Positions 10,612 through 58,137 of a stretch of DNA of 64,000 nucleotides are shown here, in pieces. The stretch comes from Promethearchaeota archaeon. GTDB lineage: Archaea; Asgardarchaeota; Lokiarchaeia; Sigyniarchaeales; SOKP01. The notes beneath the pieces are model-generated. The model ran no database searches. It worked only from the letters and a program-made list of their open reading frames with translations, and was not told where the DNA came from. The position numbers were made by a program, and so were the translations under genes. The stretch lies in NCBI GenBank assembly GCA_016839765.1, contig JAEOTP010000016.1, positions 4,027 through 68,026 of the forward strand, read 5' to 3'. The number at the start of each line of letters is the position of its first letter. Position 1 is the first letter of the stretch.

Positions 10612-12030
10612 TTAAAGAGATTTAATTGCTTCCTTTACTGATTTTTCAAAAAGTATGCAAATCATATCTGCATCTTCATCATTAATAATAAGGGGAGGCT
10701 TAACTTTTAAAGTATTTTGAATGTAATAACCTGCTGTAGACATGATCTGCATTTGTTCACCAAAAAAGATTCCATTTTTCCATCCAATATGGATCAATTT
10801 GTTTAATAGCTCATTATGAGGTTCACGGGATTCACCATCTTTTATAAACTCCACACCAATAAATAAACCAGGCCCCCTAACATCACCTATCTGTGGAATA
10901 TCTTCTGAGAGATCTTTGATAAATGAGGATATTATCTTTCCTAATTTTGCTGCACTTTCCGGTATCTTATGTTTTTGTAAAATCTCAATATTAACTAAAC
11001 ATGCCGCCATTGCTAATGATGGTGAAGAAAACGTGGAATGTTCCTCAAATTCCGTTAACATCCGTAATTTAGGTTTTGCTACTGTAATTCCAATGGGAAC
11101 CCCCGCTGCGGCTGCTTTAGTTAAAGTCATAATATCGGGAGAGACATCTTTACCGTAAGTGGCTTCATACCATTCAGTTGCAAACATTTTTCCAGTACGC
11201 CCAAAACCTGTTTGAGCCTCATCATAAATTAACAAAATATTATTATTTCGACATATTTCCTTTAAACCCATTAAAAAGTCAACTGGAGCAGGAATTTGAC
11301 CTCCAGGACCTTGCATAGGTTCAATAATACAACCAATTGGGTTACCAGTAGCATACATTTCTATTTGTTGGCGAACCATTTCTAAACATTCTAAATTACA
11401 AGATTTATCTCTTATTCCCCCAAGACCTTCCTTATAATTCCATGGACATCGATAACAGTAAGGATAAAAAGTTCTGAGCCAATGCTCTGTTCCAAAACCA
11501 GAAAATCTCATGGGTAGCCGTTGAGAAGCTCCCATCATAACTAAACTTGAACCATGATAACCCCTTCGGAAAACAATAAATTGATCTCCCTTCTTATTAT
11601 TTATCATTGCCAATCTTATGGCGCATTCAAGAGCCCATCCTCCTCCAGAATTATTTACACTTACTCTTCCACCTTTCAATTGGCCTGGTACAATTTCCGC
11701 AATTTTATTAGCAAATCTAATCCTAATAGGCGTTAGAAAATATGACCATGCATGAGTGGTTATCTGAGATTGAAGACCTAATGTATAAGTTATATCCGGA
11801 TTATTATGCCCTAAATTATAAACCCATGCTTGAGATGTACAATCTAAAATCTCCCTTCCATCATGAGTTTTAAAATATATTGATCCTGGAGCTATAGCTC
11901 CCATATAAACAATATCTCGATCTTTAACTAAAAGATGATCTTTTTTACATCGTTCAATTTCATCTTGAGATAAGGGACTAAGTAAAATTTTATCGATCTC
12001 TTCTTTTGACAAATATCTTGGTTCTTGCAT
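10612..12030 (-). CDS. Class III PLP-dependent aminotransferase
   Basis: LDCTSQ..V.NLGH, F..GYHG, EPMQGPGG, DEAQTGFGRTG and the PLP lysine in PDIMTLTK. Confidence 0.93.
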   Translation of the reverse strand: MQEPRYLSKEEIDKILLSPLSQDEIERCKKDHLLVKDRDIVYMGAIAPGSIYFKTHDGREILDCTSQAWVYNLGHNNPDITYTLGLQSQITTHAWSYFLTPIRIRFANKIAEIVPGQLKGGRVSVNNSGGGWALECAIRLAMINNKKGDQFIVFRRGYHGSSLVMMGASQRLPMRFSGFGTEHWLRTFYPYCYRCPWNYKEGLGGIRDKSCNLECLEMVRQQIEMYATGNPIGCIIEPMQGPGGQIPAPVDFLMGLKEICRNNNILLIYDEAQTGFGRTGKMFATEWYEATYGKDVSPDIMTLTKAAAAGVPIGITVAKPKLRMLTEFEEHSTFSSPSLAMAACLVNIEILQKHKIPESAAKLGKIISSFIKDLSEDIPQIGDVRGPGLFIGVEFIKDGESREPHNELLNKLIHIGWKNGIFFGEQMQIMSTAGYYIQNTLKVKPPLIINDEDADMICILFEKSVKEAIKSL

Positions 12031-12117
12031 ACTATATCAAATAGATTTTTAATTATTATTAAAACTAATATGAACTAATATGAATGAACATTATATAAAA
12101 GTATTTTCCAACTAAAT

Positions 12118-13414
12118 TTAAATCTTCGAGGCGATAAAATCTATGATATCAACAACTTTAATTTTTTCTTTAACCATAGTATCCATTTCTTCATAAGCGT
12201 TGTTTAAGTTATTTATGCAAAATGGACAGCTAGTTGTTAAAATTTGAGCACTACTGTCAACTGCTTCTCTAATACGTTCTTTAGAGATTTTAACCGCTAA
12301 CTCTGGAAATTGGCTTTTTACCCCACCACCCGCGCCACAACACCAAGCATTATTTCTATTTCTCTTCATTTCTATTAATTCAATTCCTGGAATATTAGTA
12401 ATGACTTCACGAGGTATATCATAAAGATTCATGTGGCGACCTAAATGGCAAGGGTCGTGGTAAGTTACCTTTACTTTTTCTCCTTCTTCCTTTTTAAAAG
12501 GAATTTGATTATTATTAAGCAATTCAATTATTATTTCTGTTATATGCTTTACTTCAAATGGTAATTTTTCACCTAATAATTCAGGATAATCTTTTTTCCA
12601 CGTTCGATAACATCCTGCACAAGCGGTAAAGAGAGTCTTAGCACCCCTTTCCTTGAATTCTTCAATATTATGTTTAATCGTTTCAGTTAATGATTTTTCA
12701 TCACCAATACGTATGGCAATTGAGCCACAACACCATTCATCTTTGGTCATTGCTATTTCTTTTCCTGCCGCTTTTAAAATTTTCATCATATTTTTTAATG
12801 TTTCTACCTGTCTTAAAGGTATACTACATCCCCCAAAAAACATTAGTTCTCCCTTTTCCTTAATTTCGGGAAATTCTTTTATCCAATCGAATTTTTCATC
12901 TATATCCTCCCCATATGGATTTCTCATCTTATCATCGTTCATATATTCGACTAAATCACTATGTCTTTCAAGAGGAGCAAAACCAGCTTCAACCAAATCT
13001 TTTCTTAATGCATCCCAAACTTTAACATGATCAATCCAATTACACGTAGGGAGGGTAATATATTCATTTTGAGACATATGACATACTTCAGTACAATTTC
13101 CACATACCGAGCATTGATATACCCATTCTGCAAGCTCTCTACTCAATGGGATTTGTCCTTCTAATATACTCTTGAGGACATTCATCCTCCCTCTTGAAAA
13201 ATATAATTCAAATCCCTCATCTTCCATTGCCTCTTTAACGGGACATGTCAGATATCTCCCAACAACAGGTCGAATGGCGTAACCACAATCTCCACAACCC
13301 AGGCAGGGTTTACGATCGATATCATAAACCTTTCTGCGATCATGGATAATTTCCAAAACCTATACAAGAGAATATGGCTTTCCATTCCTTTTTTAGATGT
13401 TTTAATTCACTCAT
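12118..13414 (-). CDS. HdrD/GlcF-like Fe-S oxidoreductase subunit (2x ferredoxin motif + 2x CCG domain), intron-containing: join(13414..13362,13300..12118), 411 aa
   Basis: ATG at 13414, 10 nt after the SDR stop. The spliced N-terminus is MSELKHLKKEWKAIFSCMGCGDCGYAIRPVVGRYLTCPV. Downstream motifs are CSVCGNCTEVC, WCCGS, CAGC, YHDPCHLGR, CCGAGGG and SCPFC. The ORF track starts this gene at TTG 13356, inside intron A. Confidence 0.85.
13301..13331 (-). other. mRNA BHB intron B, 31 nt (AGGTTTATGATATCGATCGTAAACCCTGCCT)
   Basis: 10-bp stem GGTTTATGAT/ATCGTAAACC, 4-bp central helix GCAG/CTGC, 3-nt bulges AA^A and CT^G, and a 9-bp outer helix TCCATGATC/GGTTGTGGA (with G-U pairs). Confidence 0.85.
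13332..13361 (-). other. mRNA BHB intron A, 30 nt (AGGTTTTGGAAATTATCCATGATCGCAGAA)
   Basis: Stem GGTTTTGGA/TCCATGATC (8 of 9 pairs), central helix TTGT/GCAG, bulges AT^A and AA^G (after B is removed). It contains an in-frame TGA at 13342-13340. Confidence 0.8.
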
Positions 13415-13424
13415 ATTTTTCACA

Positions 13425-14288
13425 TTAAAATATATAAACTAGTTTTTCACTAATTTTCCATAATTTCGTTTGTAGAGATTCATCATAAGTCAATTTGTGT
13501 GATTTTACAGGTTTACAGTTCTTAAAATATTTTCCCGTAATTCCTTCCACTTCGGGCGATGATGCGAGATATACGGAAGTTCTTGCCGCTTCTTCTGGGC
13601 TTTTTGTCAATGGTGATATTAAAGAGAGAAAAATTTTGGAACGTTTTTTAGTTGGAGCTGTCATTTTTGTTCTTGCATGACCTGGATGAAGTGCATTTAC
13701 AGTTACACCAGTTCCATTTAATCTACGTGCCAATTCATATGTGAATAGTACTAACGCAAATTTAGCATTTGCATATGCTTTTTGAGAAGAATATTTTTCC
13801 TCAGACATTAAATCATCAAAATTTATTTTAAAATAGAGATGAATATTTGATGAAACATTTATAATTCGGGAAGGAGCGCTGTTTTTAATGACATCAAGTA
13901 AAGAATTTGTTAATAAGAAATGTGCCAAATAATCGACTGCAAATGTGCTCTCATATCCATTTTCAGTTTCTATTCTTTTTCTATTAAAGATACCGGCATT
14001 ATTTATTAAAACATGTAAATATTTGTAATTCTGTTTGAATTCTTTAGCCACATTTTCAACTGATTTTAAAGAAGCTAGATCTGCGATTAAAAGATCGATT
14101 TTTTCATTACCTGATTTATCTTTGATCTCATTTTGTGCTCTTTCTGCTTTTTCTCTATTTCGACATATCATTATGATATGATATCCCTTTATTGCTAGTT
14201 GCATGGCGGTTTCTATCCCAATACCAGCATTGGCTCCCGTAATCACACAAAATCTTTTGTTAGACTTATAATTTTTGTTAATCATCAT
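13425..14288 (-). CDS. Short-chain dehydrogenase/reductase (retinol dehydrogenase-like subfamily)
   Basis: TGANAGIG, LINNAG, SRIINVSS, YANAK and NALHPG motifs. Confidence 0.93.
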   Translation of the reverse strand: MMINKNYKSNKRFCVITGANAGIGIETAMQLAIKGYHIIMICRNREKAERAQNEIKDKSGNEKIDLLIADLASLKSVENVAKEFKQNYKYLHVLINNAGIFNRKRIETENGYESTFAVDYLAHFLLTNSLLDVIKNSAPSRIINVSSNIHLYFKINFDDLMSEEKYSSQKAYANAKFALVLFTYELARRLNGTGVTVNALHPGHARTKMTAPTKKRSKIFLSLISPLTKSPEEAARTSVYLASSPEVEGITGKYFKNCKPVKSHKLTYDESLQTKLWKISEKLVYIF

Positions 14289-14306
14289 TTCTAAAAATTA
14301 TTATTT

Positions 14307-15818
14307 TTACTCCCAAAAATTAAATTTACCTCTACTCAATATCATATTTGGGTCTAAATTTTTTTTAATAGATGTCATTAAGTTATAAAATTCTTCTGAA
14401 TAAGCTCCAATATCTACCATAAAACGAGATACATAATCACCCATCATATACCATTGCACTCCATGTCTAATTACTCTTTCTAAGAGAGATTTCCATAGCT
14501 TTATGTTAGTTTCTTTGATTAAATCATGGATTTCACCATCATAATACCTCCAAAAGCTTACAAAACCAGCTGTTATCTCAACATTATTACCATCTACTAA
14601 TGGTACAGGTCCACTACCTGAAATCGGCCGAACATTGGTAATATCGAAAATTTTTCGCATATCTGATTCGTGCTCAATATCCCATTGATCAATGTCTTGT
14701 AAAATTTTAGGAAATGCAGAAATTGGACAAAAACACTCTGCTGATAATGGTTGCATTGATGGGTACATCCCCCATAAATTATGATAAAATTGCCAATGCC
14801 CTTGTTCTGCATAATGCCATTTAGCAATATTACCGTCCTTAATCTCAGGGCCTAAAAATTCAGATTTCTTGCCTAATATTATCTCATCCAAATTTTTAAC
14901 TCGTTCTTCTAATTCTATCTTACTATTTGCTTCAATAGTATAAAAGAACATACCAAGTTTACGTTTTATACCTTCCCATAATGGAAACATACCTCGTTCG
15001 GATCCAATAGCAACAACTACATCCGGAATAAACATAGCATCATAAACATCTATGCCTTTTTGCCTAATTTCGGTCATGATTTGAGCTGCTGTCTCAGCAG
15101 ATTTTCGGGGCATCAAAAATGTTTTATAGTCTGCAAACTTTGGTTTAGGAAATATTTGTAGAGATACTTTTGTTTTAACCCCAAATATTCCATTGTCGCC
15201 ACAAAATAATCCAGCTAAGTCAGGTCCATTTCCAAATCTATTAAACGGATATTTCGAAAATTTATTTGCTTGAGAACCAGTCTCTATAATTTCACCAGTA
15301 GGTAAGACTACTTCTAACGAAACTAATTGATTTGTACAAGCTCCATATTTTGCACAACCACCACCTCCCACAGAATGATGGGAAATTCCTCCTCCAACAG
15401 AAGCAGACATTCCTGAACCAGGCCCCATACATCCTGTATAAAGCCCATAATGACAAAGATATTCATTTAATTTACCCCATGAGATTCCGGCTTCTATTGT
15501 AACGATTAGATTATCCTCATCCAAATTAATAATATTATTCATTCTTTTCATGTCTAGAACAATACCACCATCTCCAATGGGTTTACTGCCGCCAAACTCA
15601 CAGATTCCCCCACCGCGAGGTATGACCGGCATATTATTTTCATTCGCAACTTTAAGAATTTCTGAAATTTCTTTAGCATCTTTAGGTCTAATTACTATAT
15701 CAGGCACACCTTGTAATACAAGATCTACATTTCTAGAGTAAGCGTGTCGTACATAAATGCTGTTAGAGAGAAATTTTTTGGATACAATTTTTTCTAATTT
15801 TTGGTAAATTTCAGTCAT
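14307..15818 (-). CDS. FAD-binding oxidoreductase (GlcD/D-lactate dehydrogenase/VAO superfamily)
   Basis: PDIVIRP, PRGGG, VLDMKRMN.I, EAG, SVGG, LEVVLPTGE, GPDL.GLF.G..G.FGV.T and LDPNMILSRG motifs. Confidence 0.9.
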   Translation of the reverse strand: MTEIYQKLEKIVSKKFLSNSIYVRHAYSRNVDLVLQGVPDIVIRPKDAKEISEILKVANENNMPVIPRGGGICEFGGSKPIGDGGIVLDMKRMNNIINLDEDNLIVTIEAGISWGKLNEYLCHYGLYTGCMGPGSGMSASVGGGISHHSVGGGGCAKYGACTNQLVSLEVVLPTGEIIETGSQANKFSKYPFNRFGNGPDLAGLFCGDNGIFGVKTKVSLQIFPKPKFADYKTFLMPRKSAETAAQIMTEIRQKGIDVYDAMFIPDVVVAIGSERGMFPLWEGIKRKLGMFFYTIEANSKIELEERVKNLDEIILGKKSEFLGPEIKDGNIAKWHYAEQGHWQFYHNLWGMYPSMQPLSAECFCPISAFPKILQDIDQWDIEHESDMRKIFDITNVRPISGSGPVPLVDGNNVEITAGFVSFWRYYDGEIHDLIKETNIKLWKSLLERVIRHGVQWYMMGDYVSRFMVDIGAYSEEFYNLMTSIKKNLDPNMILSRGKFNFWE

Positions 15819-52545: not shown

Positions 52546-52755
52546 TTAGAAGTATTTAATGGCTAAAAGGATGTCGTCTCGAGTTACTTTCTTTCTTTTT
52601 GAATGCTTTGTTAAACTCAAGGCAGATTTAGTTATTTTTTCAGCTGCCATACCCATCCAATCAACTAGTTCATCCACTGCGTCACGGGCAACAATTATTG
52701 CGCCATTATGTTTCATTAATCTTCTAATAGGACTCCAACTAATATATTCAGACAT
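52546..52755 (-). CDS. Archaeal histone (HMf/HMt family)
   Basis: SPIRRLMK..GA..VA.DAV ... A...TKHSKRKKVTRDDI histone-fold signature, 69 aa. Confidence 0.92.
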   Translation of the reverse strand: MSEYISWSPIRRLMKHNGAIIVARDAVDELVDWMGMAAEKITKSALSLTKHSKRKKVTRDDILLAIKYF

Positions 52756-58033: not shown

Positions 58034-58137
58034 GGGAGGGTGGTCTAGCTTGGTATGATACATTAGCTTGGTTCTTTCAAACTAAATCTAATCGGCTGGG
58101 GGCCGAGTGGTCGGGGGTTCAATTCCCCCCTCTCCCA
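58034..58137 (+). tRNA. tRNA-Pro(GGG) with a non-canonical intron at 27/28
   Basis: Acceptor GGGAGGG/CTCTCCC, D-arm GTCT-AGCTTGGTA-TGAT, T-arm GGGGG-TTCAATT-CCCCC and discriminator A58137. Removing 58062-58091 gives anticodon arm CTCGG-CTGGGGG-CCGAG. CCA is not encoded. Confidence 0.9.
58062..58091 (+). other. tRNA-Pro intron (27/28), 30 nt, relaxed BHB
   Basis: Stem TTAGCTTGG/TCAAACTAA (8 of 9 pairs), central TGAT/ATCT (3 pairs + U-U) and bulges AC^A and AA^T. Confidence 0.8.

Follow-up and report, generated by a model that had tools for sequence, protein, structure and literature searches.

We analysed a 64,000-nt stretch of DNA from a Promethearchaeota archaeon (assembly GCA_016839765.1, contig JAEOTP010000016.1, positions 4,027-68,026 of the forward strand), hereafter called the window, in which the 5' end of a gene coding for an HdrD/GlcF-like Fe-S protein is interrupted by 61 nt. 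The comparison of this gene with its orthologues makes it probable that its codon 18 (Met, AT|G) is split by a composite of two contiguous bulge-helix-bulge (BHB) introns, A on the 5' side and B on the 3' side, which would be removed in the order B then A and would be tolerated by their host gene as selfish or neutral elements. About a third of the orthologous Asgard genes carry an intron of the type of candidate A at precisely this position, and the candidate intron B was present only in alleles carrying the longest inserts.

The interrupted gene and the anatomy of its insert

The gene product is a 411-aa HdrD/GlcF-like protein with a 4Fe-4S dicluster domain (Fer4_8) and two CCG domains, and its best protein matches were all from Asgard archaea, under the labels Promethearchaeota, Hodarchaeota, Hermodarchaeota and Thorarchaeota. 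All the features described below are located on the minus strand unless stated otherwise, with positions counted in the window. The frame opened by the ATG at 13414 reads MSELKHLKKEWKAIFSCIGFGNYP and ends at a TGA (13342-13340), and the long open reading frame (ORF) of 412 aa lies in a different frame and starts at TTG 13356. Most of the database orthologues are 411 aa long with the N-terminus MSELKHLKKEWKAIFSCMGCGDCGYAIRP. Deletion in silico of the 61 nt from 13361 to 13301 joined TCT TGT AT to G GGT TGT GGA and led to a 411-aa ORF with one terminal stop and with this same N-terminus, in agreement with about 90 database orthologues, the first 29 residues being those of the orthologue consensus. 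Since the deletion restores the exact orthologue N-terminus, the interruption is real and its boundaries are fixed by homology.

Exon 1 (13362-13414) opens with the ATG and holds 17 codons (MSELKHLKKEWKAIFSC) followed by the AT of Met18, and its peptide corresponds to the N-terminus of the 411-aa orthologues. The putative intron A (13332-13361, 30 nt, AGGTTTTGGAAATTATCCATGATCGCAGAA) contains the in-frame TGA and is supported by the position and architecture of 54 single introns, by BHB covariation and by one allele, L219, described below. The putative intron B (13301-13331, 31 nt, AGGTTTATGATATCGATCGTAAACCCTGCCT) was found only in alleles with inserts of 56-61 nt. Exon 2 (12118-13300) starts with G followed by GGT TGT GGA GAT TGT, runs to the stop codon and codes for the Fer4_8 domain and the two CCG domains.

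In the BHB of intron A, the central 4-bp helix is formed by TTGT of exon 1 (13364-13367), which covers the third base of a Ser codon and the Cys codon, with GCAG (13334-13337). It is flanked by a 5' bulge ATA (13361-13363, cut AT^A), the same in all listed intron alleles except one, and by a 3' bulge AAA (13331-13333, cut AA^A). The inner helix associates the 5' arm GGTTTTGGA (13360-13352) with the 3' arm TCCATGATC (13338-13346), corresponding in RNA to GGUUUUGGA/UCCAUGAUC with 8 of 9 pairs. In the BHB of intron B, the same GCAG serves as the 5' strand of the central helix and pairs with CUGC (CTGC, 13306-13303), with the bulges AA^A and CU^G (CTG, 13302-13300). The inner hairpin of 10 bp (13307-13330) consists of GGTTTATGAT (13330-13321), a loop ATCG and ATCGTAAACC (13316-13307), that is GGUUUAUGAU/AUCGUAAACC in RNA. 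The arm TCCATGATC might in addition form the 5' strand of an outer helix of B with GGTTGTGGA in exon 2 (13291-13299); the corresponding pairing UCCAUGAUC/GGUUGUGGA allows 9 pairs of 9 when G-U is counted. Read in this way, AA^A is both the 3' site of A and the 5' site of B; its position coincides with the 3' site AA|G of the single introns, and the bulge is invariant in all alleles with a double insert.

Cleavage between bulge nucleotides 2 and 3, the rule stated for cbf5 introns (PMC2738675), reproduces the junction defined by homology, with TGT ATG GGT TGT, SCMGCGDC and the 411-aa ORF. The 130-nt region folds at -42 kcal/mol, compared to -27.6 ± 3.7 kcal/mol for dinucleotide shuffles (z = -3.9). 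A preliminary description of this DNA had already delimited the two introns, and its coordinates and strings were all correct on the minus strand; its statements that removal of B alone retains the TGA (MSELKHLKKEWKAIFSCIGFGNYP) and that removal of A alone gives TGT ATA GGT TTA TGA (...SCIGL*) were both confirmed.

Comparative survey and covariation

Orthologous loci (160), most of them from metagenome-assembled genomes (MAGs) or metagenome contigs, were gathered from species-representative genomes and metagenomes using N-terminal alignment. The distance from the exon-1 Cys codon to CGDCG was scored for 158 loci (157 of the 160, and the window). No insert was present in 95 of them, 54 exhibited an insert of 29-34 nt and nine, including the window, an insert of 56-61 nt; all 63 inserts split one and the same Met codon after its second base (AT|G). 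A truncated double allele (L197) and two doubles fetched separately (L241 and L242) come in addition to this count. Met18 was invariant in an alignment of 22 intronless orthologues.

With 22 single inserts and their flanks, RNAalifold recovered unaided the 4-bp helix, the gap of 3 nt and the beginning of the inner helix. The full BHB was paired in 92.5% of the alignment cells of the singles compared to 37-48% with partners slid, with 46 compensatory cells compared to 1-9, and none of 500 shuffles reached the observed value. In the 22 sequences, the central helix (columns 9-12/43-46) showed 98.9% pairing between unpaired stretches of 3 nt; at its pair 9/46, which joins the third position of the Ser codon in exon 1 to the intron, the combinations UA, CG, UG, GU and GC occur. 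The intron-side helix h' was 91.9% paired with compensatory changes at 4 of 4 pairs, and the exon-side helix h adjoining the bulge, of 2-3 bp, was 84.8% paired, with a longer exon1:exon2 helix further out. Each of the single inserts is of type A and closes with a complement of the exon-1 NUGY followed by two further nucleotides.

The exon-1 sequences of the intron-bearing loci, with 48 distinct DNA versions, contain no stop codon and start with ATG in 44 of 48. Their codon-position entropies are 0.63/0.16/0.84, the same pattern as in the intronless genes, and selection still acts on the coding function of exon 1 in the genomes with an intron. Most alleles with one intron have a single uninterrupted ORF, which begins inside the intron (MQKGCGDCG...) and does not contain the first cysteine of the CxxCxxC motif. 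The survey, the covariation, the coding pattern of exon 1 and these cysteine-less internal-start ORFs, taken together, are compatible with a functional gene only if its RNA is spliced.

In the alignment of eight doubles, the A helices were 87% paired and the three helices of B 88% paired compared to 39-49% when slid, with 13 compensatory cells. The B central helix GCAG/CUGC with its bulges AAA and CUG was 90.6% paired; it is changed to GCGG/CCGC in other doubles (compensatory, pair 41/71), and compensatory variants of the inner helix are present in L162, L241 and L242. The shared arm (columns 30-38) pairs with columns 16-24 in 84% of the cells and with columns 77-85 in 86%. Its changes are mostly pair-preserving transitions, with a minority of unpaired cells, and pairing kept with both partners is expected if both helices matter. 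Two BHB-type introns, as proposed in the preliminary description, were borne out by the covariation and by the recurring inserts at the same site, and so was the proposal that GCAG and the arm TCCATGATC are common to two mutually exclusive BHB folds.

A characteristic A sequence (aGGUUUUGGAAUUUAUCC...GCRGAA) is common to the doubles, and L219 carries an A of this family alone. No B-only allele was found among the 54 singles. Judged from these alleles and from the covariation in the central and inner helices of B, A and B are two separable introns, each with its own predicted splice signals. The location of the A|B boundary at the 3' cut site of A is supported by the 54 A-type singles, by L219 and by the absence of a B-only allele.

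Exon helix, proposed order of removal and alternative readings

A pairing between the two exons across the intron, which does not figure in the preliminary description, was present in the minimum free energy (MFE) and centroid structures of the window. It associates GAATGG, GCCATA and TCTCT of exon 1 (13367-13387) with CCATTC, TGTGGT and GGAGA of exon 2 (13272-13293), both sides being indicated also by duplex energies, and reads GAAUGG/CCAUUC, GCCAUA/UGUGGU and UCUCU/GGAGA in RNA. The mean exon1:exon2 duplex energy was -10.2 kcal/mol in 86 intronless genes, -18.8 kcal/mol in 47 singles and -19.6 kcal/mol in 9 doubles. The duplex was stronger on the intron-bearing side in 34 of 35 nearest-neighbour pairs with 85-99% protein identity, with an average gain of 8.1 kcal/mol (Wilcoxon p = 3.6e-7). 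The register specific to the window is 68% paired already in the intronless genes compared to 80% in the intron-bearing ones. As no fixed register explains the gain, the enrichment is carried by alternative registers and is seen in the duplex energy. The alleles reach this pairing by differing synonymous solutions; in the sequence lists, the Ser codon is TCN in all listed intron-bearing alleles and often AGY in the intronless ones. We interpret the exon1:exon2 helix as a clamp that would present the BHB and hold the exon ends for ligation.

The shared GCAG cannot pair with UUGU and CUGC simultaneously, so that the two BHBs are mutually exclusive. The conformer with the B central helix and a forced A-BHB conformer were then compared with 30-nt flanks, in models that ignore the enzyme and coupled translation. 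The B conformer was the more stable in nine doubles out of nine, by 1.8-5.4 kcal/mol (-42.0 compared to -37.0 kcal/mol in the window). In the precursor of the window, the pair probability was 0.72 for the B helix and 0.001 for the A helix; after in-silico removal of B, that of the A helix was 0.18, which is the mean of the natural single introns. Removal of A first would leave B with UUGU/CUGC, i.e. two G-U pairs only. The mutual exclusivity, the favoured B conformer and the destruction of the B central helix when A leaves first make B then A the likely order of removal and the likely productive path; the folding of both conformers thus agrees with the order put forward in the preliminary description, at the level of modelling.

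We infer every enzymatic step of the following pathway from the sequence. The pre-mRNA would fold with the long exon1:exon2 helix clamping the junction and with the B-presenting conformer dominant. The splicing endonuclease would cut AA^A and CU^G, after which the end of A would be joined to exon 2 by a ligase of the RtcB type. The freed GCAG would then pair with UUGU and form the A BHB, the same substrate as in the single-intron relatives, and a second round of cutting and ligation would restore TGT ATG GGT TGT and the CxxCxxC cluster motif. The predicted mature junction is TCTCTTGTAT|GGGTTGTGGAG (TGTAT|GGGTTG) and the predicted B-removed intermediate ATCGCAGAA|GGGTTGTGG (GCAGAA|GGGTTG); the A-removed form would read CTTGTAT|AGGTTTATGAT (TGTAT|AGGTTTATG). 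The predicted circles are CGCAGAA|AGGTTTTGG for A and CCTGCCT|AGGTTTATG for B. The spliced product would show MSELKHLKKEWKAIFSCMGCGDC, with the N-terminal peptide MSELKHLKKEWKAIFSCMGCGDCGYAIR.

Several observations weigh against this two-intron, two-step reading. The MFE and centroid structures are three-way junctions closed by the exon1:exon2 helix, in which the 9-bp outer helix of B is not formed and the A hairpin abuts the B central helix. In these models, B would be presented as a relaxed motif grading toward the relaxed HBh' class and not as a textbook hBHBh'. Such a relaxed motif is plausible, since Asgard EndA, an (alpha-beta)2 enzyme with an L1 loop, is reported to have a broad specificity (PMC5829648). 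The B central helix contains a G.A mismatch (GCAG/CUGA) in three doubles. On the side of intron A, the outer helix by the 3' bulge has only 2-3 bp and is absent where exon 2 begins with GAA, and two of the central-helix pairs are G-U; this helix is weak, its modelled probability being about 0.18 in the singles too, so that recognition must rely on the enzyme. In addition, the ORF starting at TTG 13356 in the window keeps the CxxCxxC motif (KPCLGCGDC), and an unspliced product is thus possible. The motif is kept there only because the B strand CUGC reads as an in-frame Cys codon, which is not the case in L085 and L097.

Excision of the 61 nt in one step, as a single intron cut at its outer sites or with all three sites cut at once and with no obligatory B-removed intermediate, is an unlikely alternative. 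It would give a 61-nt circle CCTGCCT|AGGTTTTGG. In the three-way-junction fold, the outer sites AU^A and CU^G lie near each other owing to the exon1:exon2 helix, which would also hold the exons while the ligase joins exon 1 directly to exon 2; Asgard EndA is reported to accept relaxed motifs, and a tandem A-A ancestor could have left in a single step. However, the outer bulges are linked by no 4-bp helix, UUGU facing CUGC with no more than two G-U pairs; conservation or covariation is seen in both GCAG/CUGC and UUGU/GCAG, with an internal AA^A bulge that does not vary in the doubles; and the A-only allele L219 fits a B-removed form of the RNA or of the DNA.

The preliminary description had also proposed that the two sequential steps constitute an AND gate. 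A two-step order selected as a regulatory checkpoint, AND gate or timer, controlling the amount of enzyme appears quite improbable to us. The order dependence is plausible, the shared arm is compatible with both partners, and a role as negative regulator was once proposed for the cbf5 intron (PMC2738675). But the same enzymes would act in both steps, hence there would be no two independent inputs, and the intron state varies between very similar genes. The states are scattered over the neighbour-joining protein tree; the number of introns (0, 1 or 2) differs between genes with 85-99% protein identity, and the products of L088, without intron, and L162, with a double, are 99% identical. One MAG, YT_039, contains a double (L097) and a single (L098) as paralogues, which could also correspond to a strain mixture within the bin. 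As near-identical genes differ in their intron state, the introns look dispensable on short evolutionary scales. They resemble selfish or neutral elements which the gene tolerates and which are lost or exchanged again and again, and not a regulatory device.

We consider it very improbable that no splicing takes place and that translation starts at the internal TTG 13356, the ATG frame being a decaying relic or a 24-aa upstream ORF. The 412-aa ORF is uninterrupted and database entries are called in this way. Against this, exon 1 is conserved as coding and free of stops in the 48 distinct intron-bearing alleles, most of the singles and some of the doubles have an internal-start ORF without the first cysteine, BHB covariation is seen in the insert, whose cut sites restore the conserved Met codon exactly, and the exons co-evolve to pair across the insert.

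Translational bypass of the phage T4 gene 60 type, from GGT 13360-13358 to GGT 13299-13297 and giving ...SCIGCGDC, has the matching GGT codons around a structured 58-nt gap with a stop codon in its favour, as read from the sequence, but it has almost no chance of being correct, since the single-intron alleles are without matching take-off and landing codons, Met18, invariant in the intronless orthologues, is restored only by the BHB cut sites, and covariation in a bulge-helix-bulge register is not predicted by it. Frameshifting was rejected as well, as were group I or II introns, the insert being too short, and a pseudogene or assembly error, the same architecture recurring in independent assemblies.

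Origin, genomic context and known counterparts

In L110/L190 and L181/L179, two of the examined pairs of near-identical genes with differing intron states, about 60 nt of exon 1 by the insertion site exhibited 6-10 mismatches per 30 nt compared to 0-2 elsewhere. This cluster looks like the replacement of an allele or segment, as in co-conversion, and not like point decay. Concerning the origin of B, the A and B sequences of L085 are identical at 20 of 30 positions with one gap (p<0.0005 compared to 2000 shuffles of B). The similarity is significant likewise in L081, reaches p = 0.02 in the window and is not significant in the L113 type. A and B both start with AGGTTT. A ends with GCGG in L085, L097 and L081, and the flanking CCGCGG of L085 is palindromic, so that CCGC would be available in a copy as a partner of GCGG; an A-A tandem would be open to splicing as soon as it arose. 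These sequences give moderate support to an origin of B as a tandem duplicate of A that has since diverged. The insertion of B at the 3' splice junction of A, claimed in the preliminary description, thus stands for the position, on the basis of the singles, L219 and the absence of a B-only allele, and not for a foreign insertion, a tandem duplicate being likelier in view of L085.

A more far-reaching and rather doubtful reading is that BHB introns of Asgard mRNAs are dynamic, semi-mobile elements which multiply at their own cleavage sites, B being an RNA-mediated copy, and whose segments are exchanged. A tandem copy could arise by circularisation of the excised intron and rolling-circle reverse transcription, or by mis-ligation at the cut 3' site followed by recombination of the cDNA. 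Intron-plus-flank segments would be swapped between lineages and leave co-conversion-like patches.

In the window, which has a G+C content of about 30%, the interrupted gene is part of an operon-like row on the minus strand. The row comprises a FAD-linked oxidase (14307-15818), a short-chain dehydrogenase (13425-14288), the Fe-S/CCG protein (mechanical ORF 12118-13356) and a class-III aminotransferase (10612-12030). This neighbourhood (10612-15818) is partly kept in relatives, with the aminotransferase downstream in L241 and the FAD-linked oxidase upstream in L242, and suggests a conserved dehydrogenase module. The A and B sequences do not occur elsewhere in the window. A home-made BHB scan of the window, aimed at additional mRNA introns, was too unspecific, with about 100 hits on each strand compared to 65-84 in shuffles; with an ORF-merging filter it gave 221 uninformative hits, so that other introns in the window were neither found nor excluded.

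A tRNA gene of 104 nt on the plus strand (58034-58137) was detected with Rfam (35.9 bits), with about 30 nt beyond the model in the anticodon/variable region; ARAGORN found no tRNA anywhere in the window, including at this gene. BHB enumeration allowed one 14-nt intron in it and left the extra hairpin CGGCUGGGGGCCG unexplained. This over-long gene is possibly intron-bearing, and might be a hint of the splicing machinery of the host. A 69-aa ORF (52546-52755, minus strand) resembles an archaeal histone fold protein by eye, and the 2.4 kb without long ORFs at 51.3-53.6 kb hold small ordinary genes and no split gene.

In the literature searched, an incomplete collection that makes a prior description elsewhere possible, archaeal mRNA introns of the BHB type turned up only for the crenarchaeal cbf5 gene, and nothing was found on BHB introns in Asgard protein-coding genes nor on contiguous BHB introns sharing a strand. 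The cbf5 intron is reportedly also the subject of work by Watanabe in 2002 and by Yoshinari in 2006. It is present in the cbf5 pre-mRNA of Crenarchaeota, in Desulfurococcales and Sulfolobales (Yokobori 2009, PMC2738675). As in cbf5, a short BHB intron would split a functionally critical codon of a protein-coding gene, with a cut between bulge nucleotides 2 and 3, a hetero-oligomeric endonuclease accepting relaxed BHBs, and gain and loss among relatives. In contrast to cbf5, the gene is an Fe-S/CCG gene, the phylum is Asgard and splicing is deduced from sequence; the presence or absence is much patchier, down to near-identical alleles, the exons have co-evolved to a clamp, and two abutting introns would share a strand.

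Multiple and non-canonical BHB introns are known in tRNA genes of Thermoproteales (Sugahara 2008 and Fujishima 2010, cited in PMC4390854). The likeness lies in the presumed EndA and ligase, in the relaxed motifs, in several introns per transcript and in their turnover. Unlike these tRNAs, the transcript here is an mRNA with no tRNA body as a scaffold for the BHB, and the introns are contiguous with mutually exclusive BHBs. Introns tied to the splice signal of another intron, and thus removed sequentially, are also represented by the group II/III twintrons of Euglena plastids and by the spliceosomal stwintrons of fungi. Here, in contrast, a protein endonuclease would read the shape of the RNA, and B leaves the sequence of A uninterrupted, abuts A and competes for its 3' strand. 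In the unconventional splicing of HAC1 and XBP1 mRNAs, stress-activated Ire1 acts on paired stem-loops together with RtcB or Trl1, and regulation is proven. The common points are a non-spliceosomal splicing of mRNA by an endonuclease and a tRNA-type ligase and a change of frame; Ire1, the paired stem-loops and the proven regulation have nothing comparable shown here. The link between RtcB and HAC1 is cited in PMC5829648.

The split gene would be a rare second example, after cbf5 and within the literature searched, of a BHB intron in an archaeal protein-coding gene. The gene, the lineage, the twin arrangement and the exon clamp would be new, and the presumed machinery and the motif are known. 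Public entries of intron-bearing alleles begin inside the intron (MQKGCGDCG..., MLQRGCGDCG..., 396-403 aa) and are without exon 1, as in proteins P0003-P0012, P0096, P0101, P0103 and P0107 and in loci L086, L089 and others. About 40% of the orthologues would thus be publicly annotated with a wrong, truncated N-terminus without a cluster cysteine.

The introns A and B would form the first pair of BHB introns sharing a strand in the literature searched, which predicts an ordered two-step reaction, and the exons that flank them appear to co-evolve to clamp the junction. Dozens of natural alleles with 0, 1 or 2 introns constitute a comparative series for the recognition of BHB introns without a tRNA scaffold and for their gain, duplication and loss. 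If true, the semi-mobile reading would provide a working example of gain, duplication and precise loss of protein-spliced mRNA introns among the prokaryotes most closely related to eukaryotes.

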